The translations under genes were made by a program, and so were the position numbers. From an uncultured bacterium (GTDB lineage Bacteria > Patescibacteriota > Minisyncoccia > UBA6257 > GWB1-50-10), in the NCBI GenBank assembly GCA_963722655.1, contig CAVRNT010000001.1, positions 98,612 through 162,611 of the forward strand: a stretch of DNA of 64,000 nt. Reading direction: 5' to 3'. The notes beneath the pieces were generated by a model. The model was not told the DNA's origin. It saw nothing but the letters and a program-made list of their open reading frames with translations, and made no database searches. Position 1 is the stretch's first letter. Each line of letters opens with the position of its first letter. Below, one piece after another: positions 9,519 through 49,467 of this stretch.

Positions 9519-9533
9519 GGCGATGATACGTCG

Positions 9534-10937: not shown

Positions 10938-10944
10938 ATGCCGT

Positions 10945-11646: not shown

Positions 11647-11981
11647 TTCGTTACCGGTATTTTTGCCACGACAGCGCTGGCCGCTTTGGGGTGATTGTGA
11701 AGATAGACCTTGATGGCAAAGGTCAGAACCGGTGCGGGGATGAAGGGGATCGCGTCGCCGACGACTTGAACGAGCAGAGAAACGGGCTTACTGGCCGTCG
11801 TATCCCCCTTTTCTTTGAAGAAGAACCAGGTGCCGCCAGTGCAGGCGAAGTTGATGATTGGGGCGATCACGAGACCTATCGCCAGCCCGTCCAGTATGTC
11901 GTTCAGGGTATAAAGGCCCAAAAGGAAGATGACCCAAATCACTACTTCCGCCTCGTTGATTTTTTTGTAATCCCGCGTCAT
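11643..11981 (-). CDS. Small membrane protein
   Basis: 112 aa, 2-3 predicted TM helices; overlaps neighbours by 4 nt at both ends. Confidence 0.4.
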   Translation of the reverse strand: MTRDYKKINEAEVVIWVIFLLGLYTLNDILDGLAIGLVIAPIINFACTGGTWFFFKEKGDTTASKPVSLLVQVVGDAIPFIPAPVLTFAIKVYLHNHPKAASAVVAKIPVTK

Positions 11982-14385: not shown

Positions 14386-14399
14386 TTTATCTTATTTTA

Positions 14400-14891
14400 T
14401 CAGTAATCTATCCTTTTTGCTTGCTTGCGCTCGCCCGTGAGATAGACGACCGTCTCGTATCCCTGCTCCTCGCCCTTTTGCGCCTTCAGCGCAAAGAACT
14501 TACCGGTCGTGATGTTCAAAGCGACGTTCTTGAGCCGTTCCTCCAGGCCCATCTTGTGCCGGAGGTTCTCGATGTCCGTCAACTTGTTCAGGTCGATCGT
14601 GGTCGTCGGGTTGATCCTTTGCCAGGTGTAGACCCGGGGTTGCCAGAAATAAGTGAGTGCCGAGGTAACAATCTTCGGGAACTCCTGGCCGTTGATCTTC
14701 AAAAAAGCGAAAGCGAGGCCGATCATGCCGACGATCACCGTCACAATGACGGCGAAGAAGAGATTGAAGATTTGGAAGGAGATGTAGCCCAGAAGGGCCG
14801 CCCCGCCCACGTAGAAGAACTGTTGGAGAGTGAGGAAGCCGACGATCTTCGGCTTCTGTTCTATGAATTGTGGAATTTGGAAATTAGCCAT
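14400..14891 (-). CDS. Small two-TM membrane protein, VirB3-like candidate
   Basis: 163 aa with two hydrophobic helices (FFYVGGAALLGYISFQIFNLFFAVIVTVIVGMIGLAFAFL); sits directly upstream of the VirB4 parts. Confidence 0.35.
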   Translation of the reverse strand: MANFQIPQFIEQKPKIVGFLTLQQFFYVGGAALLGYISFQIFNLFFAVIVTVIVGMIGLAFAFLKINGQEFPKIVTSALTYFWQPRVYTWQRINPTTTIDLNKLTDIENLRHKMGLEERLKNVALNITTGKFFALKAQKGEEQGYETVVYLTGERKQAKRIDY

Positions 14892-16305: not shown

Positions 16306-16310
16306 AACCG

Positions 16311-18167: not shown

Positions 18168-18180
18168 TTGTTTAATTTAC

Positions 18181-19776
18181 CTATCTGTTGGCTTCGCACT
18201 GCTGTTGTTTGTTTTGGGCCGCCGCAAGGGTTATTTGAATGCCAGAGAGCATAATCTGGACGTTGCTATCTAAGTTGGCCGCAGTCATTGTGAGGTTGGC
18301 GACATTGCTAGAATCAACGCTATTTAGCGTACTGGACGTGACATTCGGGTCACCGATGATGCCAATCAGCGTGTTGACCGAAACCGTTGAAGAAGTAACC
18401 TGAACCGCCGCTTGTTGTAACGCGGCGGGCGTCGAACTCACGGCGATCGTCAGATTCTCCTGAGCCCAGCCGTAGTCGGGGTTGACGGGATTAGTGCCCA
18501 AGCAACCAATGAGCCCGGTAATTGGCCCGCCCAACGTCGTTATTAGGGTTTGATTGGTGCTAGAAGCGGTCGCGAGCGTCGTTGATGCGTCGGCGAGCGA
18601 ACTTGCGGCCTGGTTCAGTTGGGTCATGTACTGGCTCTGGAGCGCCGTGTTTATGGTATTAGTGTAGTTATTTGCCGCTGTGATCGTCGATGTGTTATTG
18701 GTCAGTGATTCCGGAGACGGCGCGTTTGGACCGCTAGACGGCTGGCCGCCGTTCGTCGCCGAAAGGATGACCCCTTGCAGGCCCTGCACCCCCGCCTTGA
18801 TCAGTCGGTTAAAGGCGGCGTCGGCGATCATTGCGATCGCGTTCGTTATATCCGGATCGCTGATGGTGAGATCGAGGTTAGCGTACAGCGATTTATTCAA
18901 GCCCTCTGCGAGAGCGGCGCCCGGCGTGGAGATCTTAAGATCGGCGCACTTCCACTGAAGTGTCGTTGGGTCCACGCCCGGCGCGACCAATGCTGGATCG
19001 AGGAAGTTCGGGGTGCCGCTGATGGGCGACGGCGGATTGTCCTGATCGGTGAGATTAGAAGGGGCCGGTACTGTCTGGGAGCCGACGGGCGTTCCACCTT
19101 GGATCTTGATGAGCCGCCAGCTGACGCATGACTGTGATTGGAACCCGACGTTCACTTGGGTTTGGAGGACGTTCTGAGCCGTAACCTGCTGAGCGTTGTT
19201 GTAAAGGGTGTCTTGGGTGATGATGTCTACGCCGTACTGGTTGTTCTGCGGCGCAAGGAGTTCGTAGTAGCCGATGACGCCGCCGGCGTCGAACCTGTTC
19301 CAGAAATCGTTGAAATTCGCGACGATGGAATTGAGCGTGCAGGAGCTCGGCTGGACCTGCGGGCTGGGGGCGGTTAGCTCCAGATTGACCTTGAAGCTGA
19401 ACGGGGAACAAAGGGTCGGCAGGATCGCCTGGGCCGTGTCCCCGACCGCTTGGTTCAGCGCTGGCTGGAAGACCCCTTGGCCGAAATTCTGGATGAACTT
19501 CGGGCTGCCGCCGCCGTTTATCCAGGTGATTATCTGATCGGTCATCGTGTCGATAATCCGCTTTTTAAGTGCGGACAAGGCAACTTTCAAGAGATTATCT
19601 TGCACCCATTGCCACACGCTTTGCGTTTTAGCCGCAGTGGTTATGTTTTGTAATGTTGGGTCGGAAACCAACATCACTCCAGCTACTTGAGCTTTTGCTG
19701 TTGGCGTAAAAAAACCGGGAGCCGAAATAACAGTAACAATGCCAAAAATTAAAACTGCGGTAAGAAATTTTTTCAT
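18181..19776 (-). CDS. Secreted Thr/Ser/Asn-rich hypothetical protein
   Basis: 531 aa with signal peptide (MKKFLTAVLIFGIVTVISAPGFFTPTAKA) and low-complexity T/S/N/Q-rich regions. Confidence 0.4.
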   Translation of the reverse strand: MKKFLTAVLIFGIVTVISAPGFFTPTAKAQVAGVMLVSDPTLQNITTAAKTQSVWQWVQDNLLKVALSALKKRIIDTMTDQIITWINGGGSPKFIQNFGQGVFQPALNQAVGDTAQAILPTLCSPFSFKVNLELTAPSPQVQPSSCTLNSIVANFNDFWNRFDAGGVIGYYELLAPQNNQYGVDIITQDTLYNNAQQVTAQNVLQTQVNVGFQSQSCVSWRLIKIQGGTPVGSQTVPAPSNLTDQDNPPSPISGTPNFLDPALVAPGVDPTTLQWKCADLKISTPGAALAEGLNKSLYANLDLTISDPDITNAIAMIADAAFNRLIKAGVQGLQGVILSATNGGQPSSGPNAPSPESLTNNTSTITAANNYTNTINTALQSQYMTQLNQAASSLADASTTLATASSTNQTLITTLGGPITGLIGCLGTNPVNPDYGWAQENLTIAVSSTPAALQQAAVQVTSSTVSVNTLIGIIGDPNVTSSTLNSVDSSNVANLTMTAANLDSNVQIMLSGIQITLAAAQNKQQQCEANR

Positions 19777-20573
19777 GAAGCCAATGATTGATATTGCGCT
19801 TGCATGGTTTGTTGAACCGTCAAATTCTCATTGAGAATATCGTTGATTTGGTTCAAACCGATAACCGCCTTAGCTGGATCGTTCGCGAGGTCGGCGATGG
19901 CCGAGAAGACAGTTATTTTCTCTTCCCAAAGGTTGATGTTAGAAAGGTGCCAGGCCGCCCAGTTGTTCGGCGCGCGCAAAGCCAAGAGGTCCACGACCTC
20001 CTGGTTTGCGATCGCGATGTACTGGTTTAGGGCTGAAGTGTCGTTGTTGTTAAAAAAGTTCGATACCATCTTGTCCATCGGCGTCTTAAAAGAGCCGAAA
20101 TCCTTTTGGGTGATCGCTCCTACGGCGGCGAGGTATTGGAGCTGGCTCGTTGTCGAAACATCGTCCGATGTCAGAATATCCTCCGGAGCGTAGGTTTTGT
20201 ATTGGAGCTTTTGGTTGATGGCTTGAGAGAGGAGTTGACTCGTCTCGTCCACGGACGGGAAGCTGATAGGGTTGGAGCCGGTCGCACTCGCGCCGGCGAA
20301 GCCGCTGTTCATCTGGAAAACGGTTTGGGCGTAGTTTTGCGTCAAAAGGTCGGTGAGATTATCCGTTACCGCTGCGGTCCCGCTCGCAGTGCCGCCGTTG
20401 TTCATCGGTCCGCGGTTCGCGCTCACGGTGTAGTCCAAGCTGCCGTCTGCACCAGCGCCAGTCTTGGCCGTGACCAAGGGTGCGTTACTTGACGAAGACG
20501 CCCCGATGATGACGAAAAATAGAGCGATTCCGCCCAAAAGAACGATCGCGGCGATGATTTTTCGTCTTTTCAT
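19773..20573 (-). CDS. Membrane-anchored/secreted hypothetical protein
   Basis: 266 aa with N-terminal TM helix (IIAAIVLLGGIALFFVIIGAS); first gene of the operon in transcription order. Confidence 0.4.
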   Translation of the reverse strand: MKRRKIIAAIVLLGGIALFFVIIGASSSSNAPLVTAKTGAGADGSLDYTVSANRGPMNNGGTASGTAAVTDNLTDLLTQNYAQTVFQMNSGFAGASATGSNPISFPSVDETSQLLSQAINQKLQYKTYAPEDILTSDDVSTTSQLQYLAAVGAITQKDFGSFKTPMDKMVSNFFNNNDTSALNQYIAIANQEVVDLLALRAPNNWAAWHLSNINLWEEKITVFSAIADLANDPAKAVIGLNQINDILNENLTVQQTMQAQYQSLAS

Positions 20574-26568: not shown

Positions 26569-27453
26569 ATGCCCAGTGCGGAAAAACTTTTGAACGACTA
26601 TCTCGCCTATCTCGAGGTGGAAAGGAATCGTTCGCCGAAGACGCGTGAGAACTATGAGCGTTATCTCCGACTTTTCCTCAAGGAGTCGGGCGTGAAGGAT
26701 ATAACCGATCTCACCGAGACCGCCGTCCGCGACTTCCGCGTCGCCCTGGCCCGCCGGAACATCAAGAAGAACACCCAGAGCTATTACGTGATTGCCATTC
26801 GGAACTTCCTTAAGTTCCTCCTGAAGCGCGACTACGACGTCTTGGCGCCGGACAAGATCGAGTTGCCCAAGGTCTCGCGCCGGGACATCGAGGTCCTGGA
26901 CTATGCCGAGCTCGAGTGCCTCCTCGCCGCCCCCAAAGGAAACTCTTTGCGGGCTCTTCGCGACCGGGCGATTTTGGAAACCTTCTTTTCGACCGGCCTC
27001 CGTCTCGCCGAGCTCTGTTCCCTCCCCCGCTACATCGATCTGGGCCGCGGGGAGATCTCCGTGCGCGGGAAGGGCGATAAGCTGCGCATCGTTTTTCTTG
27101 CCGACTCCACCAAGAAGGCCATTAAGAACTATTTGGAAAAGCGCACCGACACCGAAGAGCCGCTCTTTGTGAGTTTGACAAAGACCGGCAAGGTCATTGG
27201 CCGCATCACGCCGAGGGCGGTCCAGAGGTTGGTCGACCATTACGGCCGGGCGGCGGGAATTCCGAAAAAGTTGCATCCGCACCAGCTCCGGCACAGTTTT
27301 GCCACCGACCTTTTGATAAACGGCGCTGACATCCGCTCCGTCCAGGCGCTCCTCGGCCACGCGAACATCGCAACCACCCAGATCTACACTCATCTAACCA
27401 ATAAAGAGCTCCGCGAAGTACACCAGGCCTTCCACGGCCGGAGGAGAAAATAA
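26569..27453 (+). CDS. Tyrosine recombinase XerC/XerD family
   Basis: 294 aa; catalytic residues in RLAEL...HQLRHSFATDLLINGADIRSVQALLGHANIATTQIYTHL. The stop is 5 nt from the tRNA-Leu 3' end. Confidence 0.8.
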   Translation: MPSAEKLLNDYLAYLEVERNRSPKTRENYERYLRLFLKESGVKDITDLTETAVRDFRVALARRNIKKNTQSYYVIAIRNFLKFLLKRDYDVLAPDKIELPKVSRRDIEVLDYAELECLLAAPKGNSLRALRDRAILETFFSTGLRLAELCSLPRYIDLGRGEISVRGKGDKLRIVFLADSTKKAIKNYLEKRTDTEEPLFVSLTKTGKVIGRITPRAVQRLVDHYGRAAGIPKKLHPHQLRHSFATDLLINGADIRSVQALLGHANIATTQIYTHLTNKELREVHQAFHGRRRK

Positions 27454-27457
27454 TCTG

Positions 27458-27539
27458 TGCCCTCGAGAGGATTTGAACCTCTAACCCTTGCGGGACAGCG
27501 TCCTAAGCGCTGCGCGTATGCCAATTCCGCCACGAGGGC
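27458..27539 (-). tRNA. tRNA-Leu (anticodon UAG), type II with long variable arm
   Basis: Hand-folded cloverleaf: acceptor GCCCTCG/CGAGGGC, anticodon loop CTTAGGA, variable arm TCCCGCAAGGGTT, T-loop TTCAAAT; CCA is not encoded. Confidence 0.8.
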
Positions 27540-27569
27540 AACACTACGATTTTATCAGGTTTTTCTGAT

Positions 27570-27598
27570 TTGACAAATCACCGGTTTTCTGCTAGTAT
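27570..27598 (+). promoter_or_regulatory. Sigma70-type promoter TTGACA-17nt-TAGTAT
   Basis: Read directly; lies upstream of the three-gene operon; shares the ATTTGACAAAT motif with three other promoters in the window. Confidence 0.4.
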
Positions 27599-27668
27599 TT
27601 AGGCAGAATTATTGTCACAATTAAGACTATCGGAATTGAAAGAAACTCGGAATAAAAGCGGAGGTTGT

Positions 27669-27887
27669 ATGTCTATACCAGAAACGCCGGCAGAAGAGGT
27701 CAAGAGAAAACTGAAACAGATCGGCAAGACGGTCGGCCGAGTTGTCAGAAATCTTGACGACGACCTCATCCACGGCATTGCTTCTCTGCATGAAAACAAG
27801 AAGGTCCAGAGTTTTACGAAAGGACTCCTCAAGACGTGGAGAGATGTCCTGAAAGAGCTTGATAACGAAAAGAAAGAAAAACCTTGA
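27669..27887 (+). CDS. Hypothetical small protein (gene 1 of 3-gene operon)
   Basis: 72 aa from the ATG after RBS GGAGG (MSIPETPAEEVKRKLKQIGKTVGRV...); low-GC codon usage; the ORF-track start at 27612 is less likely. Confidence 0.35.
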   Translation: MSIPETPAEEVKRKLKQIGKTVGRVVRNLDDDLIHGIASLHENKKVQSFTKGLLKTWRDVLKELDNEKKEKP

Positions 27888-27907
27888 AACTTGAAAGGAG
27901 GTTTATT

Positions 27908-28306
27908 ATGCAAATGGGTTTCGCGATCCCCTCGAAAGGCAAAAAACATCGAGGTGAATCGGACGGCGACAAGCAAAAGCCGAGAGAGGTTCTTAACGTT
28001 GAGGTGGTTGGGCCGAAAGGCAGACAAAAACTATTCATCTCCGTTAGCATGGAGAACGGTGGTCTGATAGCAGACGCCGAAGGTGTCTTGATCGACGGCT
28101 TGATCTCTAAAGAATTCACAACCGGACAAAGCGGAATTTATGTCCACGAAGTTAAGTTCGATGGAAACGAACCAACTCGCGTTATCAGAGTTAAAATTGG
28201 CGATGGACCGATTCATAACTGGGAATCAGTCATTATGAACACAAAACCGCCGCGACTTCAACTAAGTCCAATAACAGCCGAACTAGAAAGGAGGTTTCCC
28301 GTATGA
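27908..28306 (+). CDS. Hypothetical protein (gene 2 of 3-gene operon)
   Basis: 132 aa from the ATG after RBS AGGAGG (MQMGFAIPSKGKKHRG...); the stop of gene 1 overlaps this region; no recognised motif. Confidence 0.35.
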   Translation: MQMGFAIPSKGKKHRGESDGDKQKPREVLNVEVVGPKGRQKLFISVSMENGGLIADAEGVLIDGLISKEFTTGQSGIYVHEVKFDGNEPTRVIRVKIGDGPIHNWESVIMNTKPPRLQLSPITAELERRFPV

Positions 28307-28872
28307 ACCTGAAATCGATTTGGCAATGGATCATTACATTCGGTGGTGATGTCCTCGCCGCCATTTGGGGCAGTAAGCTTGCTGCCGAAGATGGTAACAA
28401 ACCTGTTGGTGGTGCAAGCCCGGGTAAGATTCTTGGAGGATACCTCCAAGAAAAACTAGCCGAAAAGCTTGATCGCGGCACTCTACTCCATGAACTTCAT
28501 ACCATAAACGCTGATACCCAAGGCGGCATCCAGAAACTTATGGAACTCTACCTCGAACTCCAGGTGAAACACGTCATCTTCGTCGGGAATCAGGCCTACA
28601 CGGAAGACGAACTGGGGTTGATGCTTATGCAGATACCAGTAGATGAACGTAGCACGGAGTATGTTATTTTGAACGACGTGCTTGTAGAACAGGGCCGTGA
28701 AGCCTTATTCTCTCAATTGGAAATACTGCGCAACAACAAGCTCCAACAAAAACTCGAAAAATTCGACGCCGTGGCCAAAAAGAAGATCGGCGAAGTTGCG
28801 GAGCCGATTAAAAATGCGGCCCGCAAGAACAGGGAGAACAAGGGCTATGTCATCCCTTCATACCTCGAATAG
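28303..28872 (+). CDS. Hypothetical protein (gene 3 of 3-gene operon)
   Basis: 189 aa; start overlaps the gene 2 stop (ATGA coupling); no recognised motif. Confidence 0.4.
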   Translation: MNLKSIWQWIITFGGDVLAAIWGSKLAAEDGNKPVGGASPGKILGGYLQEKLAEKLDRGTLLHELHTINADTQGGIQKLMELYLELQVKHVIFVGNQAYTEDELGLMLMQIPVDERSTEYVILNDVLVEQGREALFSQLEILRNNKLQQKLEKFDAVAKKKIGEVAEPIKNAARKNRENKGYVIPSYLE

Positions 28873-28893
28873 GTAGTTGTAATCATTCAAAAA

Positions 28894-28922
28894 CCCGCTT
28901 CATCGGAAGCGGGTTATTATTT
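28894..28922 (+). terminator. Rho-independent terminator CCCGCTTC-atcg-GAAGCGGG + TTATTATTT
   Basis: Perfect 8-bp stem, 4-nt loop and T-rich tail, read directly. Confidence 0.7.
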
Positions 28923-28949
28923 GACAAATTACATATATTATGCTAATAT
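28921..28949 (+). promoter_or_regulatory. Sigma70-type promoter TTGACA-17nt-TAATAT
   Basis: Read directly; lies upstream of the membrane-protein gene at 29027. Confidence 0.45.
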
Positions 28950-29026
28950 TCACCCAGTTTCTCATAATAGAAAATTAGTGGGATTGATAGAAAAACCTAA
29001 ATAAACCCTTAATAAGGAGGTCTAAA

Positions 29027-30109
29027 ATGCTTTCCGAATTGCTGAAAATGATCGCCTCTATCGGCGACAAGCCGGTGGTCGATTTTGTCGATATGGCGAG
29101 AAAGCTCGCCTTCATCAAAAAACCGCAAGAGCGATCGGTTTGGTCTGTGTATCTTCAGGCGTTGCTACGCTATGCCCTAGCGATTACCATCGCTCCGATG
29201 GTGTTGCTGGCCATAGGCATCGCAACCGACTGGAACTGGTTGATTGGGATCGTCGGCGTATTTTGGTCAATCTGCACTATCTTGATCTTCGTGATTGCCG
29301 CGCCTGTCGGGGTCCTAATTGAAATGATTGCTGACTACCCTTCCGGATTCGGTAAGAATTATGTCCATACGGTCGGTAAGGTGCTGGCCATGGAAACAGC
29401 GTTTGCTTTCGGCGCAATGATCGTTCCTGTCGGCAATAATCCGAATATTTTGCCGGTGGCGATCGTCGCGGTGATACTGCTCGCTTGGTTTTCTTGGTCT
29501 GGATCACAGGTGATAAAGGGTAAGAAGCCGAATAAGTTGGCAACGAAGCTCGTTGGCTCGGTCCTGACTATCACCATACTCGCTTTCTTCTTTCCGAATA
29601 TCCTTCCGGTCGGAAGTAGTTGGATTCGTTGGGCAAACGAAAAAGTCTTGGATCTTAAAAAACCAGGACTTCCTCTCGCTCCGTTGGCCACTAGCCAAGC
29701 CGAACTGAACCAAGCGATAGCGCAGGCGCAACAAACGCAGAGCCCAATGCCTCCGGGAATGCAGGCAAACGTGTCTGCACAACCGATACAGCCGGCGGAT
29801 ATCCGTTTCGCTGGCAACGAGACATCAAAGGATGTTCCCTACACAACCGCCAGATGCACTCCCTGGGTTTATCTTCCCAGGACCACTGGTAGCTGGTCTA
29901 CGGATTTGACCCCCGCTCTTACTACACCAGGACAATCGATATCCATCTATTGTCTTGATGGTAGGAAGTTCACGAGGACGTACGATCATAATCCGGTCAT
30001 CTACCCAACACCTCAGGCCATCTCCATCGTCGGGGATAACTGCGAGGGGACGGCGACGATAAACATCCTACGTCTAGGTCATGGACAAGTGGCAATGTTG
30101 AGCCACTAA
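29027..30109 (+). CDS. Polytopic membrane protein with C-terminal extracytoplasmic Cys-containing domain
   Basis: 360 aa; 5-6 TM helices in the first 200 aa, then a Gln/Pro-rich linker and a C-terminal domain with 4 Cys; RBS AAGGAGG. Confidence 0.45.
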   Translation: MLSELLKMIASIGDKPVVDFVDMARKLAFIKKPQERSVWSVYLQALLRYALAITIAPMVLLAIGIATDWNWLIGIVGVFWSICTILIFVIAAPVGVLIEMIADYPSGFGKNYVHTVGKVLAMETAFAFGAMIVPVGNNPNILPVAIVAVILLAWFSWSGSQVIKGKKPNKLATKLVGSVLTITILAFFFPNILPVGSSWIRWANEKVLDLKKPGLPLAPLATSQAELNQAIAQAQQTQSPMPPGMQANVSAQPIQPADIRFAGNETSKDVPYTTARCTPWVYLPRTTGSWSTDLTPALTTPGQSISIYCLDGRKFTRTYDHNPVIYPTPQAISIVGDNCEGTATINILRLGHGQVAMLSH

Positions 30110-30174
30110 GTCCAAGTTCATCGAGCGCGAGCTCGGCGGGCGCGAGAAAACAAAACCTCGCGCCCTTTTATTTT

Positions 30175-31512
30175 CTAAATTCCGTACGTGTATGGGGCGA
30201 CAATAAGAAATCCTGTGACGGTCAAAACCGCTATCGCGATGAGCGCGAGGCGCGCGGCGAAGTCGTTTTTCTCAATCAGCTTTCCGACGAAGATTCCGGC
30301 GAGGGCGATGGCGAAAAGCAGCGCCGGGAAGTAGTGATAGAGAAATGTGGCGCGATGGACAATGGTGAAAAACGGCATGAGACAAAAAATATAACCGACC
30401 ATAAGAAGCAAGGCCGGTTTCATTTTTTCGTCAAAAAATCGCTTAACCCCGCTTTTGATCGTGAGCCAAAGCGCACCGATGACCGCGGTCGTCGAGGCGA
30501 GCCAGACGAACGGATTGCCGACGAGAACGATCCGCTTCGTGAATTCCATTGGTTTCCACATAAAAGGCCAGGCGTACCACGGGCTCATTAGTGGGTGAGA
30601 GGCCCCGCTCGTGTAGCCGGTTACCATTAAAAGTCCATTAACTATTACCGCTTTGACCGCCGCAATCGTCCGCGGAACGTTTTGATAAGCCCCGGTGATC
30701 TTTTGGAGTATCGGCCAGCCGAAAAGCCCAACGTCATAGCTTAAATACGCATTCGGGCGGGCGACGATACCACTCAAGCCTAATTCGGCAAAAACGAGCA
30801 CGATGAGCGCGGCGACGGCGAACTTCCAGAAAACGCTCTTAACGTCCTCTTTCGGGATTCTCGACCAGCCAATTAAAAGTGCAGCGACGATCGGGCCGAT
30901 AAAAACTATCGCCGTGAGCTTAACACTCAAAGCAAGGCCGAAAAGCAGTCCGGCAACGGTGGGTCGCGGTCTTTCTTTGAGAAAAAAATAGAGGGACCAT
31001 AGACCGAAAGCAATGTACATTCCGTCCATTAGGACCAGGCGAGTGTCCAAAAGTAGCGCGTTTTCGAATATCAAAAGGAACGTGCCGGCGATGGCGGCAA
31101 TGGGGCCGGCGAGCGCTCGTACGAGAAGATAGAAACCGGCGATCATCAGCAGGCCGAAAAGGACGCTGACGACTCTTAGGGGAACATAGGGGAATTGGCC
31201 GTACGGCACCGGGTTATAGTTGGTTTGGAGATTATCCGTCGCGACATTGTGATTGAAAGTAACATAATCGGCACCGGCCAAATCCACCCGCGGATAGAAG
31301 AGAAGCGGCAAAGCGTAGATCCATTTACCGAGGGGTGGATGGACATCGAAAAATATTTTTCCCGTAGCGTTATCAGCGGCGTAGGTCGTAAAATAGGCCT
31401 CGTCAAAGACCGGTTCGGCTGGCAAGACGATGCGATAGAGATGCAGAAAGGCGCTTAGAAGGACCAAAAAAATAAAAGCGACTGTTTCATATCGCTTCAA
31501 AAAATCCGCCAT
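30175..31512 (-). CDS. GT-C family glycosyltransferase (GT39 PMT / ArnT-like)
   Basis: 445 aa, polytopic; N-terminal loop carries EPVFDEAYF, consistent with the DE motif of PMT/ArnT-type GT-C enzymes. Confidence 0.6.
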   Translation of the reverse strand: MADFLKRYETVAFIFLVLLSAFLHLYRIVLPAEPVFDEAYFTTYAADNATGKIFFDVHPPLGKWIYALPLLFYPRVDLAGADYVTFNHNVATDNLQTNYNPVPYGQFPYVPLRVVSVLFGLLMIAGFYLLVRALAGPIAAIAGTFLLIFENALLLDTRLVLMDGMYIAFGLWSLYFFLKERPRPTVAGLLFGLALSVKLTAIVFIGPIVAALLIGWSRIPKEDVKSVFWKFAVAALIVLVFAELGLSGIVARPNAYLSYDVGLFGWPILQKITGAYQNVPRTIAAVKAVIVNGLLMVTGYTSGASHPLMSPWYAWPFMWKPMEFTKRIVLVGNPFVWLASTTAVIGALWLTIKSGVKRFFDEKMKPALLLMVGYIFCLMPFFTIVHRATFLYHYFPALLFAIALAGIFVGKLIEKNDFAARLALIAIAVLTVTGFLIVAPYTYGI

Positions 31513-31515
31513 ATT

Positions 31516-31836
31516 TTATTGCGCCTTGATGACGTTGGTGACTATCGTCTGGACGCCGCTTGCTAGAAGCGCCACGGCCGCCGCGATCACGGCGTAGAGG
31601 ATAATCCTCTTCGCTTTGGTAATCTTTTCGTCGTCGCCGCCGGCCGTGACGAAAAGTATCGCCGCCCAGATGAGCATCCCGACCGCGATTATCCAAAAGA
31701 TGCCAAAAAGGTAGTTCACCCAGTTATTGAGGGTGTTTTTAACGTCCGTAATCGATGTAATGGGCGGTGTTTGAGCGGCGGCGATCGCTGGGAGGAAGAA
31801 AACCGTGAGTGCGCCGAGCGTCTTTTTGATCATCAC
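31516..31836 (-). CDS. VirB2/TrbC-like pilin paralog 1
   Basis: 106 aa; signal peptide ending AIAAAQ, then helix-AGGDDEKITKAKR-helix. Confidence 0.55.
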   Translation of the reverse strand: MMIKKTLGALTVFFLPAIAAAQTPPITSITDVKNTLNNWVNYLFGIFWIIAVGMLIWAAILFVTAGGDDEKITKAKRIILYAVIAAAVALLASGVQTIVTNVIKAQ

Positions 31837-31901
31837 TTTTATAATACAACTTTATGTAAAAAAACAAACCCCGCTTGGCGGGGTTTGTTCATCGATCGAT
31901 T

Positions 31902-32261
31902 TTAGGAGGTTGAACCAAGCAAGAGCCGTGTGACAATCGCTTGTAGACCGGTCGAAAGGAGGGCGATGGCCGCCGCGATGATCGCGCCGATAACGCGCTT
32001 CTTCGCTTGGCCGATCTTTTCTTCGTCGCCGCCAGCCGTGAGGTATAGGACCGCCGCCCAGATCAGGAATAATACAGTGATTATCCAGAAGATGGTGATG
32101 AGCCAGTTGATGATGTTGGTCAAACTGCCCTGCGCTTGGCCCAAGGATGTAATCGGGGCCACCGCCGTGATTCCCGGCGGTTGCTGAGCCAGCGTCGCGA
32201 GCGGCGTGACGATGGCCATCGTCATTACCGCAACGCTCACGATTTTTTCGAATTTCGTCAT
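31902..32261 (-). CDS. VirB2/TrbC-like pilin paralog 2
   Basis: 119 aa from the internal Met (MTKFEKIVSVAVMTMAIV...LTAGGDEEKIGQAKKR...); the 210-aa ORF-track version has an implausible Arg-rich extension. Confidence 0.5.
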   Translation of the reverse strand: MTKFEKIVSVAVMTMAIVTPLATLAQQPPGITAVAPITSLGQAQGSLTNIINWLITIFWIITVLFLIWAAVLYLTAGGDEEKIGQAKKRVIGAIIAAAIALLSTGLQAIVTRLLLGSTS

Positions 32262-32293
32262 TTCGGTAGGTTGTGCTTTGTAAGCTCGACCTT

Positions 32294-32701
32294 TTATTGA
32301 CTTAACAGACTTTGGATGATGGAAGTTATCCCCCAACCGATAAGAATTATAGCATAGCCGATGACGGCGTAAAGAACAGTCCTTTTGCCCGTCGCGAACT
32401 TCTCCTCGTTTCCGGCGGCGGTCACCATTTGTAACGCCCCTATAATAATCATACCGACTGCAATCGGTGTCGCGATGATCCATAACCAGTGGACGATGGA
32501 TTGTATGAGTCCTTCTACGGTGCCGTTCTGGCAATTGGTGCTCCCGCTCGTGCAGAGAGGGTTAAGTAAGGAAATTGCTGTGGGACCAGGCGAAAGTGGC
32601 CCAGCTTGGGCTAAAACAGTCGATACACCGGTACCAACCGCTAAGACACACAAAGCTCCACTTAGTCCCAAAACAATCAATTCTCTTCTCATTCGTTTCA
32701 T
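32294..32701 (-). CDS. VirB2/TrbC-like pilin paralog 3
   Basis: 135 aa; signal peptide, Cys pair (CTSGSTNC), then helix-AAGNEEKFATGKR-helix. Confidence 0.5.
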   Translation of the reverse strand: MKRMRRELIVLGLSGALCVLAVGTGVSTVLAQAGPLSPGPTAISLLNPLCTSGSTNCQNGTVEGLIQSIVHWLWIIATPIAVGMIIIGALQMVTAAGNEEKFATGKRTVLYAVIGYAIILIGWGITSIIQSLLSQ

Positions 32702-32702
32702 T

Positions 32703-33140
32703 TTAGCACTGAATTTGGGCCCACGGGAAGTCCAGCCGGCCGGTCAGGACCTGGAAGAGCGTGTTCACAATGAGCCACCCGCAGAGGATGATGATGAGGC
32801 CGATGATCGCGCTCGTCATTATCTTTCTCGCCTCGCCGAAGTTGCTCTCAGAACCGAAGGAGACCATCATCCGGATCGCGCCGTAGACGATGAAGACGAC
32901 GGCGATGATTATCCCGAGGGGTACCGCGATGTTGTTTATGATGTTCCCGGCGACGATCACGGCATCGCAGGTCGAGCAGCCAATCGTGGAAGTGCCGGTC
33001 GTCGCGTTGCAGGTCTGGCCGCCCTGTCCCGTTCCCTGCCAGATGTTGAAGCTGAAGTTCGGCATCGCGGCCGAGGCCGTTTGGGCGAGAGCGCTGGAAA
33101 CGGCGATGATGGCGAAAGCGACGATTAAAATTTTATGCAT
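32703..33140 (-). CDS. VirB2/TrbC-like pilin paralog 4
   Basis: 145 aa from the internal Met (MHKILIVAFAIIAVSSALAQTASA...); Cys-rich mature N-terminus; helix-FGSESNFGEARK-helix. Confidence 0.5.
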   Translation of the reverse strand: MHKILIVAFAIIAVSSALAQTASAAMPNFSFNIWQGTGQGGQTCNATTGTSTIGCSTCDAVIVAGNIINNIAVPLGIIIAVVFIVYGAIRMMVSFGSESNFGEARKIMTSAIIGLIIILCGWLIVNTLFQVLTGRLDFPWAQIQC

Positions 33141-33157
33141 TTCAATATTGGGGAGGT

Positions 33158-34468
33158 TTAACCTCCTATGTTCTGCGCGAGCTGGTAGATCTGGTTTTGA
33201 GCTTGAGTCAGAGCCGCTTGAACAGTCGTTTGGCCCGTGAGGACACTCTGGATCGTTTGAGAAAGGATCTGGGCATCGGCGGCCGGGTCGGCCTCGTACC
33301 ACGACTTCGCGATCAGGGCCTGTCTCGCGAAAGCGCTCAAGGTCGGGTCGCTTTCCTCATTATATATCACCTGGTTCAGGGCTGGTGGCTTGCCGGTCGC
33401 GGTCACGTAGGCGGCGGCGTTCGTCTGGTTCGTCGTCATATCCAGAATGAGGGTCCAGGCGAGAGCGGCGTGGGTGCTCTGTTTGGAGACGACGTAAGCC
33501 CAGTAGTTCGGGTAGGCCGCCACGACTCCGTTTTTGACCTGCGGCACCGGTACCGTCTCGATGTCGAGGAAAGGCTTCTGCGACTTTATCTGCGGAATGG
33601 CCGATTCGTAGTCGAAGATCATCGCTGTTTTGCCTTGGGCGAGGGCGTCAACTGGGTCGGGGAGCGTCGAGCTCCAGGTATAAACGGACGAGTTCGGTGA
33701 GCCGAACTGGACGTAGAACTGAAGGGCGTTCTGAGCCGCTTGGGAATTGAGGTTGAAGTTACCCGCGCGCGAGTCCAGGGCGACGCCGTTCTGGATCAAG
33801 AGAAGCGCCAGAAGATCGGAGGCGCGGGGAACGCTGTCGTTCGGGCCGCCGATCGCCGCCGCCGCTTGAATGATGTTCCCGGCCGCGTCCTTTTGCGTGA
33901 GCTTCGGGACGTTCGCCGTGAAATCGTCCCAACTCTGCCAGGTCGATGGGAGCGGCACGCCGGCCTGGTCGAAGAGCGAGCGGTTGTAGATCAAGGCGAG
34001 GGTGTCGATCGAGAGCGGCAGGCCGTAGACCTGACCTTGAGAAACGAAGTCCTGGACCACGACGGGCGGGAAAAGTTGTTGCAGGTTGAGGAGTGCGAAC
34101 TGGGTCTGGGGAACGGGCGTGATCTTGTTCAAATTTGGCTGGAGGTCCGTGTTCGGGACCATAAAGATGTCCGGTCCTTCGTTCGCCGCGAGGGCGTTCA
34201 AGACGGCCGCCTCGTACGTCTTAGCGTCGGGGAAGCTCCGGTAGTTCACCGTGACGTTCTTATATGTCTGGTTGAAACTTTGGATGGCGGCACCATAGGC
34301 CGATGACGGGTCGCCGACGCCCCAGAAGTTCAAAGTCGCCTTGATGTTCTGGGGGTTCGTCTGCTGATTTTGAAGTCCTGGCAGGATGCCGATGAAGACC
34401 AAGGCGAATATCAAAACCACGCCGCCCCCGACAGCGATCATTATGATTTGATTGTGAGAGAATTTCAT
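33158..34468 (-). CDS. ABC transporter extracellular solute-binding protein (family 1, sugar-type)
   Basis: 436 aa with N-terminal TM/signal anchor and SBP_bac_1-like composition; no cognate permease or ATPase in the window. Confidence 0.6.
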   Translation of the reverse strand: MKFSHNQIIMIAVGGGVVLIFALVFIGILPGLQNQQTNPQNIKATLNFWGVGDPSSAYGAAIQSFNQTYKNVTVNYRSFPDAKTYEAAVLNALAANEGPDIFMVPNTDLQPNLNKITPVPQTQFALLNLQQLFPPVVVQDFVSQGQVYGLPLSIDTLALIYNRSLFDQAGVPLPSTWQSWDDFTANVPKLTQKDAAGNIIQAAAAIGGPNDSVPRASDLLALLLIQNGVALDSRAGNFNLNSQAAQNALQFYVQFGSPNSSVYTWSSTLPDPVDALAQGKTAMIFDYESAIPQIKSQKPFLDIETVPVPQVKNGVVAAYPNYWAYVVSKQSTHAALAWTLILDMTTNQTNAAAYVTATGKPPALNQVIYNEESDPTLSAFARQALIAKSWYEADPAADAQILSQTIQSVLTGQTTVQAALTQAQNQIYQLAQNIGG

Positions 34469-36916
34469 TTAAAGGCAAACTATGCCCACTAACTTATCCC
34501 CCTTCTCCAGGTTCATGATCTTCACTCCCTGGGTCGCGCGGGAAAGGACGCGAATGTCCTTCAAGGCCGTCCGAAGGGCTTGGCCCTTGGTCGAGAAGGC
34601 GAGCACCTCCGTTGTCGCGTCGTCCACGATGTGGGCGCCGATCACTGGACCGGTCTTTCCAGTGATTTTCGCGGTCTTGATGCCCGAGCCGCCGCGCTTT
34701 TGGACCTTGTACTCCTTGAGGAGCGTCTGCTTGGCGAAACCGTTCGCCATCACGGCGACCAACCTCCCCCTTTCCGCATCCTCTTTCTTTATTATATCAA
34801 GCCCGCTCACCATATCCCCCTTGCCGAGGCGCATGGCCTTCACACCCGAAGCGCCGCGGCCCATCGCCCGGATGTCCTTTTCCTTGAAACGGATGGCCTG
34901 GCCGAGGGCCGAGGAGATGATGATCTGGTCCTCCCCGCCCGAGAGCCGGACCCAACCCAGCGAGTCCCCCGCCGTAAGCTTGATGGCGATGATGCCGTTC
35001 CGGCGGACGTTGCCGAAGTCGCTCAAAGCCGTCTTTTTGACGATACCTTCCTTCGTGACCATCACGAGGAAGTTCTTGCCGCTCGCGAGCTCGTTCGAAT
35101 AAGCCACGATTGCGCTCACCTTTTCCGTCCCCGGCATCTCGAGGAAGTTGTAGATCGCCCGGCCCTTCGCGGTGCGGCTCGCGACCGGGATCTCGTAGAC
35201 CTTGGTCTGGAAGACCTTGCCTTGGTTGGTGAAAAAGAGGATGTTGTCGTGCGTGTTCGCGGAAAGGAACTGATAGATCAAGTCCTCCTCCTTGAGGTCG
35301 AAGCCGATGAGGCCTTTGCCGCCGCGCTTCTGGACGCGGAAGGTGTCAGGCGGCATCCGTTTGATGTAGCCGTCCTGGGTCAAAGTGATGAGCGCCTCTT
35401 CGGAAGCGATCAAATCCTCCTCCTTGAACTCCTTGAGACCGCTCGCGACGATCTTCGTCCGGCGGCCCTCCGGGAAGGTTTTTTGAAGAAAGGCTAGGTC
35501 CTCCTTGATGATCCCGAGGATCTTCTTCGGCTGTTTCAAAATAAGCTCCAGTTCGGCGATGAGCTTCCGCTTTTCCACGAGCTCGTCCTCCAGTTTCTGG
35601 TGTTCAAGGGCGGCCAGGGTCTGGAGGCGCATCTCGAGGATCGCGTCCGCTTGGAGCGCCGTGAGCTTGAAGCTCTTCATCAAGTTCTGTTTTGCGTCCT
35701 CGCGGTCCTTTGATCTCTTGATGGTCGCGATGACCTTATCGATGACGTCCAAGGCCCTAACAAGACCTTCCAAGATGTGCTCGCGCTCCTTAGCCTTCTT
35801 GAGATCGAACTCGGTCCGGCGGCGGATGACGATCTTCCGGTGCTCCAGGTAAGCCGCAAGCACTTCCTTGAGCGAAAAGATCTGCGGCTGGATGCCGTCC
35901 ATAAGGGCCAGCATGTTCAAATAGAAGTTCTTCTGGAGCTCGGTGTACTCGTAGAGCTGGTTCAAGATCTTCTGGGGCGCGGCATCGGATTTGAGCTCGA
36001 CGACGATGCGCAATCCTTCGCGGTCGGATTCGTCCCGGAGGTCGCGGATGCCGTCGATCTTCTTCTCGGTCACGAGCTCTGCCATTTTGGTGATGAGGTC
36101 GGATTTGTTCACTTGGTACGGGATCTCCGTAATGATGATCTGGAAAGCGCCGGACTTGCGTTCCTCGACCTCGGCCTTGGCCCGCATTGTGATAGAGCCC
36201 TTGCCGGTCGCGTAGGCCTCTTCAATGCCCTTTTTGTTGTAGATCACACCACCAGTCGGGAAGTCCGGTCCGGGCAGGAACTCCATCAGCTCTTTGACGG
36301 AGGCGTCGGTATGGTCGATCAAATAGGCCGTCGCGTCGGCGACCTCGCCCAAATTGTGGGGCGGGATGGACGTCGTCATGCCGACCGCGATGCCGGAGGC
36401 GCCGTTCAAAAGTAGGTTCGGGAGCTTGGCCGGGAGGTAGCGGGGTTCATCGCGCGTCGCGTCATAGTTGGGTTGCCACTCCACGGTCTCCTTCTCGATG
36501 TCCTGGAGCATCTCCTCGGCGATCTTCGAGAGGCGCGCCTCGGTGTAACGCATCGCGGCGGGGCTGTCGCCGTCAATCGAACCCCAATTCCCTTGGCCGT
36601 CGATCAACGGGTAACGCAAAGAGAAGTCCTGGGCCATTCTGGCCAAGGCGTCGTAAACCGAAAGGTCGCCGTGGGGATGGTATTTGCCAAGCACTTCGCC
36701 GACGACGTTCGCTGACTTCTTGAACTTCGCCGCGTGGGTGAGGCCCGAGTCCCACATCGCCCAGAGGATGCGCCGCTGGACGGGCTTCATGCCGTCGCGG
36801 ACGTCCGGCAGGGCGCGCGAGACGATGACGGACATAGCATAGTCCAAATAGGATTCCTTGAGCTCCGCCGTGATCTCCCGGTCCTTGATGTTCTCCTTTT
36901 TGATGTCGTCCTCCAT
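34469..36916 (-). CDS. gyrA: DNA gyrase subunit A
   Basis: 815 aa with active-site region [18 protein letters not shown] and a C-terminal beta-pinwheel. Confidence 0.9.
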
Positions 36917-36947
36917 TGTGAAATATTAAATATTTAATGTTTAAACA

Positions 36948-37355
36948 TCACTGCGTCGTGCTCGTCGCCTCCAATTGGAGTGTATTCGTCCTTTGTATCT
37001 GGTTTTGGAAATCCTGCCAAGCCCCGCCAATCACGTTCCCAATGTTTTGGAAGCCGCTCCCGAGGTCCTGCCAGACGATACCGAAACCCCGACCCAGCGT
37101 TCCGAAGAAAGAGCCAGTCTTGGTCTCGCCCGAGGCGCCAGGGAAAGACGTCGTCGCGCTCGAGGTGGCGGTCGCCACCTCCGGCGCCGCTTGCGGTAGG
37201 GTCATATTGAGGTAAACCAGCCAGAGGAAGACGACGACGATCATTAATACGGCGGAGACGCCGTACAGATACCGCCTTTTGGTCTTGTCGTCGGCGCGCT
37301 GGAGGCGCTTTATGAAATCGCGGGTCTTAGTGGCCGTTTCTTTGATGTTCGGCAT
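36948..37355 (-). CDS. Small membrane-anchored hypothetical protein
   Basis: About 135 aa from the internal Met (MPNIKETATKTRDF...) with one TM; the ORF-track start at 37439 would overlap the upstream gene by 80 nt. Confidence 0.3.
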   Translation of the reverse strand: MPNIKETATKTRDFIKRLQRADDKTKRRYLYGVSAVLMIVVVFLWLVYLNMTLPQAAPEVATATSSATTSFPGASGETKTGSFFGTLGRGFGIVWQDLGSGFQNIGNVIGGAWQDFQNQIQRTNTLQLEATSTTQ

Positions 37356-37357
37356 CG

Positions 37358-37927
37358 TTAGACGGAAAGGCACTTGATCGCCATCGCCTTTGGCACCAAG
37401 TCCTTCTTCTTGAAGACCAATTTCTCCTCCGGGGAGCACTTTTCCTGCCCCATCTCTTTGAGGAGGTTCTTTGGATTCTCCGGGAAGGAGATGAGGACGA
37501 TGCTCGGTTCGAGCTGGCGGATGAGCTTCGCGGCCGCGGCCGCCTCCATGAAGGACTTGCCGCCCGCGGGAATGATGAGGACGTCGCAGTCCGTCAAAAA
37601 TTCTTGGACCTTCGGTTCAGGCTCCTTCGTAATCTGCCCCAAGACGGCGAAAGAGATTTCGTCCATCTCCATCCGGTAGACGGTCCGCTCGACGCCCTTA
37701 TCGTTTCCGGCGCTCCAGCCCGTCACGTGGATGCCCTGCACTTCGTATTCCCCTTGGTGCGAGATGACGGCCGGACCCTCGTCCGATACCTCGACCGGCG
37801 CCGGCATTATTGTGTTCAAGACTAAGGCCGCTCCGCGGAGGGAGCGCTGATTTTCCGGGTCGAGGAGGACGGCGAGCCCCCCCGACGATATCTTGAAGTA
37901 GTCGTTGCCGAGAAAATTAATGACCAT
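37358..37927 (-). CDS. Hypothetical protein, possibly degenerate MBL-fold hydrolase-like
   Basis: 189 aa; N-terminal MVINFLGNDYFKI resembles UPF0173/MBL starts but no HxHxDH motif is seen. Confidence 0.3.
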   Translation of the reverse strand: MVINFLGNDYFKISSGGLAVLLDPENQRSLRGAALVLNTIMPAPVEVSDEGPAVISHQGEYEVQGIHVTGWSAGNDKGVERTVYRMEMDEISFAVLGQITKEPEPKVQEFLTDCDVLIIPAGGKSFMEAAAAAKLIRQLEPSIVLISFPENPKNLLKEMGQEKCSPEEKLVFKKKDLVPKAMAIKCLSV

Positions 37928-37956
37928 TAAGCTCTCTTATTTTACCTTAAAATGAC

Positions 37957-39087
37957 TTGCTTTTCAATGCGGCCTCGTGTAGATTATTTACACTAATGAA
38001 CGTCATCAAGGACAGTCCATCCACGGAACCGGTGCCGGTCTGGAAAAGCAATCCGGCCATTTTGCCGACGCTCCGCCAAGGCGACCTCGTCGAGGGCGTC
38101 GTTTTGGAAAAGGGTTCCAAAGAGATCGTCATCGACCTCGGCCGCTACGGCACGGGCGTCGTCTACCGTGGAGAATTGCAGAACGCCCGCGAGATTGCGC
38201 GGGACCTCGAGGTCGGGAGCCCCGTCCACGCCAAGGTGGTGGAGGTGGACAACGATGACGGCCTCGTGGAACTATCGCTCTCTGAAGCGGACAAGCAGCG
38301 CGCTTGGGCGGCCGTCGCCGAGCTCAAGGAAAAGGACGAACCCCTCAAGGTGAAACCGACCGGCTTCAACAAAGGGGGGCTCATGATGGACATCGAGGGA
38401 TTGCACGCCTTCCTTCCCATCTCCCAGCTCTCCGCCGAGCACTACCCCCGCTCGGAATCGGCCGAACCAGGCCGGGCTGCCCAGATTCTCCAAACCCTCG
38501 TCGGGACCGAGATCGAAGCGAAGATCATCGACGTTAATCCGCGGACGGGTAAGCTCATCGTCTCCGAGCGCGCCGCGAAGGAAATCAGCGCCAAAGAACT
38601 GGCCAAGAACTACGCCGTCGGCCAGGAGATCGAGGGCGTCGTCTCGGGCGTCGCCGATTTCGGCGCTTTCATCCGCTTTACCGACAATCCGGCCGTCGAA
38701 GGTTTCATTCACGTTTCGGAGATCGACCACCGCGTCTTGGAGCATCCGAAGGAGATCGTCAAAGTGGACGACGTCGTGAAGGCCAAGATCGTGGACATCA
38801 AGGACGGTCGTATCTCCCTTTCGCTCAAGGCCTTGAAGGAAGACCCGTGGCTCACAGCCGCCGAGCATTATAAGGAGGGCGAGACCGTGCGCGGCATTGC
38901 TTATTCCTTCACGCCTTTCGGCGCGCTCATCAATTTGGACCACGGCCTCCAGGGGCAGCTCCCGGTCACCGATTTTGGCGGCGTGGCCGAGATGAAAAAG
39001 GCACTCGTCGCGGGCGACACCTACCCATTCACCGTCTTGAGCGTGAAGCCCGAAGACCACCGGATCATCTTGAAGTTCCAGAAATAG
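37957..39087 (+). CDS. rpsA: 30S ribosomal protein S1 (multi-S1-domain)
   Basis: 376 aa with four S1-like repeats (GDLVEGVV..., GSPVHAKVVEVD..., EIEGVVSGVADFGAFIRF..., GETVRGIAYSFTPFGALINL). Confidence 0.7.
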   Translation: MLFNAASCRLFTLMNVIKDSPSTEPVPVWKSNPAILPTLRQGDLVEGVVLEKGSKEIVIDLGRYGTGVVYRGELQNAREIARDLEVGSPVHAKVVEVDNDDGLVELSLSEADKQRAWAAVAELKEKDEPLKVKPTGFNKGGLMMDIEGLHAFLPISQLSAEHYPRSESAEPGRAAQILQTLVGTEIEAKIIDVNPRTGKLIVSERAAKEISAKELAKNYAVGQEIEGVVSGVADFGAFIRFTDNPAVEGFIHVSEIDHRVLEHPKEIVKVDDVVKAKIVDIKDGRISLSLKALKEDPWLTAAEHYKEGETVRGIAYSFTPFGALINLDHGLQGQLPVTDFGGVAEMKKALVAGDTYPFTVLSVKPEDHRIILKFQK

Positions 39088-49413: not shown

Positions 49414-49467
49414 CATTTTTATAGCTTTGTGCTAGATTAAAAGGCACTTAACAAAAGAATAAGGAGG

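Follow-up and report, generated by a model that had tools for sequence, protein, structure and literature searches.

Entry-exclusion and other polymorphic determinants such as TraS/TraT and Eex/TraG are membrane proteins encoded in or beside the loci of conjugative T4SSs (type IV secretion systems), and they differ strongly from one close relative to the next. Members of the Patescibacteria rely on other cells, and what gives their T4SSs target specificity is a question on which the locus described here may bear. It is located in a stretch of 64,000 nucleotides, hereafter the window, from an uncultured bacterium of this group (GenBank assembly GCA_963722655.1, contig CAVRNT010000001.1, positions 98,612 to 162,611); coordinates are positions in this 64-kb window. 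The locus comprises a small open reading frame (ORF), g1, followed by three genes, g2, g3 and g4, that are referred to together as the trio. An earlier reading of the same DNA, hereafter the original prediction, had flagged g1, g2 and g3 (27570-28922) as a self-contained operon of the defence, toxin-antitoxin (TA) or selfish accessory type, and as a candidate for an undescribed system.

Patescibacterial T4SSs are described as being of a monoderm type with VirB2 arrays, and in some Patescibacteria classes VirB6 homologues are reported to be difficult to find (PMC12102498). In a Saccharibacterium, the one genetically tractable member studied, T4SS genes and pilins are essential for growth as an epibiont (PMC10633639). 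The T4SS passages of PMC12102498 (section 13) and of PMC10633639 make no mention of the trio. Like the T4SS loci with VirB2 arrays of the candidate phyla radiation (CPR), the trio is found near a four-gene array of the pilin family PF18895, and VirB4, TrsD-like and PrgI/VirB3 genes are present in the window. Unlike described T4SS loci, none of the trio proteins matches the profile of a described T4SS component in Pfam. Several other systems offer partial likenesses. Orthologues of g2 have an N-terminal domain that matches intimin (PDB ID 6tpl) and Big_1, as in the intimin/invasin adhesins, whereas the g2 family lacks their signal peptide, β-barrel/LysM anchor and long repeat array. The g4 protein resembles VirB6/TrbL in being polytopic, with about five predicted transmembrane (TM) helices, and in being encoded beside T4SS genes, but it has no PF04610 match and evolves far faster than the neighbouring pilins; to our knowledge, a C-terminal Q/P-linker and β domain such as that of g4 is not typical of VirB6. 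By functional analogy only, the trio may be likened to TraS/TraT and Eex/TraG, being T4SS-adjacent, strongly variable and inclusive of a membrane protein, although there is no homology and its architecture is different; we know of no evident conjugative function for CPR T4SSs. Finally, the compact operon, strong promoter, coupling and terminator recall TA or defence cassettes next to a tRNA and an integrase, and TA genes neighbour some of the related loci. Unlike such cassettes, however, the locus has no toxin, antitoxin or defence domain, its Xer is a conserved ortholog, it adjoins the tRNA on its 5' side with no att repeats, and it is syntenic between relatives instead of mobile.

A conserved module of three genes

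The related loci, numbered L001 onwards, come from metagenomes and metagenome-assembled genomes, and the three protein families are named by position: "up" for the g2 family, "mid" for the g3 family and "dn" for the g4 family. In every recovered locus (L003-L015 and L017-L022), a g3 homologue is located between an upstream gene encoding 175-320 residues and a downstream gene encoding 267-390 residues. Pairwise blastp and leave-one-out hidden Markov models (HMMs) support homology of the upstream genes to g2 and of the downstream genes to g4. Because the flanking homologues match g2 and g4, while g1 matches nothing, the conserved module is g2-g3-g4 and not g1-g2-g3, as seen in about 12 of these loci. 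The trio is thus a conserved three-gene module of uncharacterised families. Its genes overlap in most loci, which points to translational coupling.

This outcome bears on three points raised in the original prediction. That none of the three flagged proteins carries a recognisable motif is borne out by Pfam, NCBIfam, PHROGs and PADLOC: searched with g1-g4 and with the family alignments, these libraries return no consistent match for g1, g3, g4 or the domain that g2 itself possesses. Co-occurrence of the three flagged genes in other genomes, which it proposed to check, holds for g2 and g3 and fails for g1, which has no homologue. The undescribed module that had been proposed survives in the uncharacterised, conserved g2 and g3, but its boundaries had been misplaced, as g4, outside the flagged interval, is the third partner.

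The module is found in a small clade of Parcubacteria-type Patescibacteria. An exhaustive HMMER search with g3 among 1.84 billion representatives yielded 18 relatives at E ≤ 1e-3, of 166-231 residues except for one 625-residue match, and a profile search added about 20 more; one relative is labelled Parcubacteria group bacterium Gr01-1014_107. The g3 family is very rare (~40 sequences among 15 billion), which limits its impact to a narrow lineage. Word-indexed searches among 5.8 billion proteins returned only the query itself for both g2 and g3, and the exhaustive HMMER search was needed to reveal the g3 family; each of g1, g2, g3 and g4 forms a singleton cluster. Scans of the GTDB species representatives revealed no relatives; alignments A1 and A2 proved too diverged to serve in a locus search. 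The JGI metagenomes yielded one locus only, already in the set. Neither a second copy of the trio nor paralogues among the T4SS genes of the window were found. The identical window sequence was also recovered from other samples. To note, L001 (Logan ERR10755942) is an independent assembly of identical sequence that equals window positions 27505-38872; it terminates within the tRNA-Leu gene at 27505, which may be due to chance or to strain variation at the tRNA-side slot.

Divergent genes between conserved promoters and terminators

The closest comparison is with L020 (NCBI GCA_009712145.1, a 60-kb contig), in which a trio occupies the same place. Between the window and L020, protein identity amounts to 94% for the NYN-domain protein, 90% for both Xer and rpsO and 86% for PNPase, then to 69-83% for the pilins, 75% for the solute-binding protein and 69% for the PMT-family glycosyltransferase, and it drops to 44% for g2, 35% for g3 and 31% for g4. 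At the nucleotide level, blastn aligns the flanks at 73-81% identity and detects no similarity across the trio coding sequences. The regulatory DNA is conserved between these divergent genes: the first promoter is 85% identical to that of L020 over positions 27569-27620, the coding DNA downstream having no nucleotide similarity, and the segment from the first terminator through the second promoter to the 5' part of g4 is 69% identical. The -35 and -10 boxes, the terminator stems and the Shine-Dalgarno (SD) sequences are kept in all three genomes aligned (window, L017 and L020), and the L020 g4 orthologue, dn345, has an equivalent terminator 3' of the gene. The trio proteins thus diverge far more than their neighbours while promoters and terminators are conserved.

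Two transcription units make up the locus in a conserved architecture: P1-g1-g2-g3-T1 comes first and P2-g4-T2 second. Promoter P1 (27570..27598, + strand) is a consensus match conserved in relatives, with TTGACA at 27570-75, a 17-nucleotide spacer and TAGTAT at 27593-98 as a TG-extended -10 box. It is followed by g1 (72 residues, 27669..27887, +, GGAGG SD), g2 (132 residues, 27908..28306, +) and g3 (189 residues, 28303..28872, +), the latter two with GGAGG-type SDs, and then, 3' of g3, by the intrinsic terminator T1 (28892..28915, +), CCCGCTTC-ATCG-GAAGCGGG with a T-rich tail, whose fold has a free energy of -18.6 kcal/mol (z = -6.4 versus shuffles). The promoter boxes, the three ORFs and the terminator had been reported in the original prediction and are present as described, as is the ATGA overlap (28303-28306) that couples g2 to g3. 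A stop-start overlap between g1 and g2, also reported, requires that g2 begin at an alternative TTG codon at 27884 (140 residues); the ATG of the 132-residue form at 27908, preceded by AAGGAGG, sits 20 nucleotides past the g1 stop codon (27885-87). Nor is the unit self-contained: the related promoter P2 (TTGACA-17-TAATAT, TG-extended, 28921..28949, +) drives g4 (360 residues, 29027..30109, +), the conserved third partner of g2 and g3 elsewhere, which ends at its own terminator T2 (30138..30174, +), GGGCGCGAG-N10-CTCGCGCCC followed by TTTTATTTT. The P1 and P2 regions form a 44-nucleotide repeat (D2) with 73% mutual identity.

A third promoter-like site, the consensus match TTGTCA-16-TAAAAT (27549..27576, - strand), is directed at the adjacent tRNA-Leu gene; its -35 box overlaps that of P1, so that the two promoters stand back-to-back. 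Sites matching the consensus at 10 of 12 positions or better number 11 in the 64-kb window, against 3.5 +/- 1.8 in shuffles, and 3 of the 11 (P1, the divergent site facing tRNA-Leu, and P2) cluster at the locus. The 5' untranslated region (UTR) has no Rfam match and no stable fold indicative of an RNA element. An inverted repeat TTCTGC-N10-GCAGAA at 27587-27608 overlaps the P1 -10 box and could be an operator; L020 retains it with a single change, and L017 lacks it. The two back-to-back promoters are separated by an inserted gene in L020, where each retains a TTGACAAA box (a 13-bp inverted repeat, L020 positions 9227-9259).

A resident chromosomal locus

Immediately to the left of the locus, as the original prediction had noted, are a tRNA and a recombinase: tRNA-Leu(TAG) (27457..27539, -; ARAGORN and Rfam tRNA, 56.5 bits) and a tyrosine recombinase of the XerC/D type with Phage_integrase and SAM-like N-terminal domains (26569..27453). 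Taking them as marks of a mobile or defence island is not supported. The recombinase is a XerC/D ortholog that ends the left flank PNPase-NYN-rpsO-Xer, the tRNA has the cassette on its 5' side, and no att-like repeat or repeat of the tRNA sequence exists within 26-34 kb. The order in L020, KsgA...PNPase-NYN-rpsO-Xer-tRNA-[trio]-PMT-4 pilins-solute-binding protein, matches that of the window, and in L017 the order is Xer-tRNA-[extra gene]-trio, so that the trio is found at the same place beside the tRNA in both. A tRNA-integrated island was rejected in view of the 90% identical Xer ortholog in the same housekeeping synteny, the 5'-side position and the lack of a repeat.

The composition of the genes likewise appears to be a property of the locus. 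The G+C content at third codon positions (GC3) of the trio is 0.47-0.58 in the window, against ~0.8 in the flanks, and 0.51-0.61 in L020, against 0.67-0.78. As the dip recurs in L020, it is probably not a sign of recent import, and low GC3 together with regulatory DNA conserved like the flanks fits better with fast in-situ evolution than with import. The conserved synteny, the conserved promoters and terminators, the GC3 dip in L020, the 5'-side position and the lack of an att-like repeat indicate that the trio is a resident chromosomal, hypervariable locus with conserved regulatory anchors and not a recently integrated cassette. Low GC3 is not exclusive to the flagged cassette: composition is patchy across the window, and further low-GC3 genes (0.54-0.63 versus ~0.8) are located at 42793-44774 (+), 53227-53868 (-) and 8304-10937 (-).

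The spot at which relatives truly vary is the interval from the tRNA to P1, a slot that is empty in the window. In L020 it is occupied by a 207-residue gene (8527-9150, -) with a GC3 of 0.36 and no Pfam match, in L017 by a 146-residue gene (249-689, +) that has a promoter and a terminator of its own. At its C-terminus, the latter protein has a tail resembling that of g3 and its closest relatives (window 28735-28848; ..A.NR.N.GY; blastp 9e-5); as g3-family HMMs do not recognise the remainder of the protein, it was not retained as a g3 paralogue.

Proximity to T4SS pilin genes

On its other side, the locus faces pilin genes. According to the Pfam annotation of the identical Logan contig, g4 is followed by a PMT-family glycosyltransferase gene (30175..31512, -) and four VirB2-like T4SS_pilin (PF18895) genes (31516..33140, -), the array being 1.4 kb from the trio; a solute-binding protein gene and GyrA are found to its right. 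The same PMT-pilin arrangement exists in L020-L022. PF18895 genes are located at most three genes away from the trio in the window, L003, L005, L008, L011/12 and L020-22, L004 has a weak pilin match near the trio, and in L003 the pilin genes are directly followed by VirB4, TraC-like and PrgI genes. This adjacency holds across six lineages; their g3 proteins share just ~25-35% identity, and their other neighbours differ (rpsO/Xer, dnaA/rnpA/yidC, or HicAB and an ABC transporter).

The window also contains a T4SS core cluster (8304-20573, -), with genes for a 467-residue protein with a T4SS_pilin domain (9534-10937, -), a VirB4-like ATPase (11978-13738, -), a TrsD/TraC-like protein (13735-14385, -) and PrgI/VirB3 (14400-14891, -), together with four uncharacterised proteins of 266-618 residues without a Pfam match. 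Among the related loci, L003 harbors a bAvd gene (9268-9636, -; a diversity-generating retroelement accessory protein of the 23S_rRNA_IVP family) in its T4SS cluster, beside the PrgI and TraC-like genes. A GIY-YIG endonuclease gene (4532-4789, -) is inserted in the pilin array of L021 and absent from that of L020; the two loci share a g3-family protein, gene order and gene sizes.

The encoded proteins

The g2 protein matches the products of the upstream genes of 10 loci (blastp 1e-10 to 1e-28) through its C-terminal ~90-residue domain only, and the leave-one-out HMM (E = 6.5e-18) aligns it with positions 102-194 of a 199-position profile. What matches intimin 6tpl (E = 5e-7) and, in 1 of 9 members, Pfam Big_1 (2.7e-5) is the N-terminal domain of the "up" family, which is absent from the window g2; in some members, the two domains are separated by an inserted K/E-rich helical linker. 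The C-terminal domain retained in g2 has no significant PDB or Pfam match, and hhalign relates it to the N-terminal domain with a probability of only 6%. It carries a T-D-x-x-G-x-A-x-Y hairpin motif similar to that of the Big_1 domain, and an unreliable single-sequence AlphaFold2 (AF2) model displays only β strands, at a mean predicted local distance difference test (pLDDT) score of 36.6 that renders it unusable. The g2 protein is apparently the all-β C-terminal domain of the "up" family, from which the N-terminal Big_1/intimin-like domain has been lost. Signal peptides are absent throughout the family, and the C-terminal tails, which are basic, contain 3-5 K/R in the last 20 residues.

In the window, the place of the missing immunoglobulin (Ig)-like domain is taken by g1. 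The 5' UTR and start position of g1 align with the start of the full-length L020 orthologue up209, which puts g1 where that domain would have been encoded, and a hypothetical g1+g2 fusion of ~211 residues has the size of the orthologue. The g1 protein itself is basic (pI 9.5) and has no homologue by tblastn or HMM in any related locus, in any frame; its best Pfam/NCBIfam match, a FitA-like ribbon-helix-helix family (E = 0.11), covers 10 residues only. As a small ORF specific to this genome, g1 took the place of the N-terminal Ig domain that the ancestral g2 gene encoded. It is not a frameshifted remnant of that domain, no trace of which is seen in any frame; a canonical slippery heptamer at the g1/g2 junction was not found. 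HMMs also rejected g1 as a g3 paralogue.

The g3 protein is recognised by its leave-one-out HMM with E = 1.2e-18. The "mid" family displays the motifs DR..F/V, Y.ENW and FF..LEIL.ND.Q, with R58, E101, L108, F136, L139, E140 and Q149 invariant family-wide. A 20-sequence alignment gave an AF2 model with a pLDDT of 76.7 overall and of more than 90 in the core, residues 57-150; apart from a single hairpin (residues 91-100) it is made of helices, of which the C-terminal one is long. The N-terminal helix is Gly/Asp-rich, with invariant D16, G19 and G23, and its hydropathy of 1.0-1.5 is under the usual TM threshold. The fold has no match in PDB or BFVD, and the g3 profile has no significant match among PDB sequences. 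As for VirB8, which is defined by an N-terminal TM helix and an NTF2-like fold, neither feature is recognised in g3, whose model is all-helical bar one hairpin. An analogy with MotB/ExbD-like ion motors, drawn from the invariant Asp of the N-terminal helix and the polytopic partner, was dropped: g4 has an acidic TM residue, but it is not invariant, and the hydrophobicity of the g3 helix is weak.

The g4 protein is related to dn345 of L020 (blastp 1.5e-36; leave-one-out HMM E = 8e-6). Family members have a K/R-rich N-terminus and, in all full-length cases, 5-7 hydropathy peaks (5 or 7 in most), followed by a tail that assembles a Q/P-rich linker and a ~100-residue β-rich, Cys-containing C-terminal domain. 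An N-in topology combined with an odd number of TM segments would place this tail outside the cell. Judged from its sequence, g4 is probably a membrane protein of about 5 TM segments with a cytoplasmic N-terminus and an outside C-terminal domain. At least five TM helices within a T4SS locus would be expected of a VirB6/TrbL protein, and the hydropathy peaks and pilin adjacency of g4 agree with it. Against Pfam, PF04610 (TrbL/VirB6) included, g4 returned nothing at E ≤ 1 and no match is consistent among 8 family members; the g4 profile found no match among PDB sequences. Two of the three trio families are devoid of fold or sequence relatives in the searched libraries.

Interpretation

The trio is always found together, it neighbours pilin genes, and its genes have diverged beyond nucleotide recognition while their neighbours remain 70-90% identical, which makes it a candidate determinant of host interaction or exclusion. 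We tentatively favor, as a reading that has a reasonable chance of being correct while still falling short of probable, a fast-evolving envelope module that works with the T4SS or pilus at the cell surface. The three proteins would form a membrane-anchored envelope complex in which g4 would be the anchor displaying a variable domain outside the cell, g3 might dock to g4 via its N-terminal helix, and g2 would be made in a fixed ratio to g3 through translational coupling; the complex may then act with the T4SS or pilus in contact with, recognition of, or exclusion of a host or partner cell. The divergence of the trio would in this case reflect diversifying selection. A narrower version, which we consider clearly less likely, assigns the trio the role of a specificity module of the Patescibacterial T4SS/pilus, that is, a membrane-anchored, diversifying recognition or self/non-self exclusion complex that chooses the partner cell; the conserved promoter and terminator anchors would then frame hypervariable coding cassettes. 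Independently of its function, the locus is a clean example of hypervariable genes with conserved regulatory anchors in a reduced genome, and its uncharacterised families are found in a familiar context, as lineage-specific accessory genes of T4SS/pilin loci.

Several observations weigh against an envelope module tied to the T4SS. The link to the T4SS is one of gene neighbourhood only, and Pfam, PHROGs, NCBIfam and PDB provide no function-bearing homology for g3 or g4. The N-terminal helix of g3 is less hydrophobic than a usual TM helix, and the lack of a signal peptide on g2 and its orthologues is odd for an extracellular Ig-like protein. Fast divergence could also stem from relaxed constraint rather than from diversifying selection. 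Finally, L006/7, L010 and L013 have no pilin gene, although these contigs are short, and these pilin-less loci adjoin Fic/HTH (L006), AbiEii-like (L013) or ResIII helicase and weak rve (L010) genes, while L005 has HicAB on the other side of the trio.

A fast-evolving membrane complex without any tie to the T4SS, that is, a lineage-specific envelope or transport-related module in a variable, surface-gene-rich region of the chromosome, is the strongest alternative and may be viewed as a doubtful but serious one. It would account for the lack of homology to any T4SS component, for the short contigs without pilin genes, and for the ~14 kb and the housekeeping genes that separate the VirB4 cluster of the window from the trio. 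It is at odds with the recurrence of pilin adjacency in six lineages in which g3 is only 25-35% identical and the other neighbours differ. Should the trio be unrelated to the T4SS, it would still represent three uncharacterised protein families.

The defence or TA assignment of the original prediction fares less well. Three of the related loci have TA-type genes next to the trio; in a fourth, the neighbours are a ResIII helicase gene and a gene weakly resembling an integrase. These neighbours (HicAB in L005, Fic and HTH in L006, AbiEii-like in L013, ResIII/rve in L010), the variable insertion slot beside the tRNA, and proteins that diverge strongly between relatives under conserved promoters would suit a strongly expressed, undescribed anti-phage defence, abortive-infection or exclusion system evolving in an arms race. 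Conversely, the PADLOC check called for in the original prediction returned 0 matches at E ≤ 1 for g1-g4 (PADLOC-DB v2) and one chance-level match (capH, 0.023) among 20 g3-family members, hence none that is consistent. Pfam and NCBIfam reveal no toxin or antitoxin family in g1-g4 and no nuclease, NTPase, protease or toxin domain. g3-family relatives were found neither in IMG/VR nor in phage genome and plasmid collections (the latter two searched by tblastn of g3), and the locus is fixed in housekeeping synteny instead of residing on a mobile island. Homology to phage structural proteins, which would have spoken against an accessory system, was likewise not seen, since PHROGs returned isolated matches only (E ≥ 0.006) with no shared family. 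A TA pair was rejected for want of both a toxin domain and a DNA-binding antitoxin domain in Pfam/NCBIfam, and a catalogued defence system for want of a PADLOC match to g1-g4. The module is neither a TA pair nor a tRNA-integrated island, and it does not belong to the catalogued defence systems; an undescribed defence system is rather unlikely.

Many T4SS substrates carry basic C-terminal signals and are assisted by small cognate chaperones, as exemplified by VirE1/VirE2. By comparison, the leaderless two-Ig-domain protein of the g2 family could be a secreted or pilus-associated adhesin, with g3 as its chaperone or adaptor and g4 as a membrane dock. The adhesin-like Ig protein without a signal peptide, its 3-5 K/R in the last 20 residues, the tight translational coupling of g2 and g3 and the adjoining T4SS pilins are what such a system would look like. 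However, the tail motif is compositional only, g3 exceeds typical secretion chaperones in size and has a hydrophobic N-terminus of its own, and no coupling protein is encoded nearby, so that this arrangement appears improbable. There is equally little to recommend a decaying, largely non-functional locus. The lowest GC3 of the window (0.47-0.55), a g2 truncated of its N-terminal domain and an orphan g1 without homologue would then stem from a relaxation of selection, with the operon-like signals as remnants. Against this, every ORF is intact and has a consensus SD, the promoters and terminators show conservation, the family-wide invariant residues of g3 persist, and the identical sequence was recovered from other samples.

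Other features of the window

Far from the trio, small membrane-protein ORFs at 49410-51520 have among them three sites that match the sigma-70 consensus, at 49410, at 50563 and, with a perfect 12/12, at 50947. An ORF-poor stretch at about 50600-51049, which has no Rfam match at the gathering threshold, might encode an unannotated small RNA.

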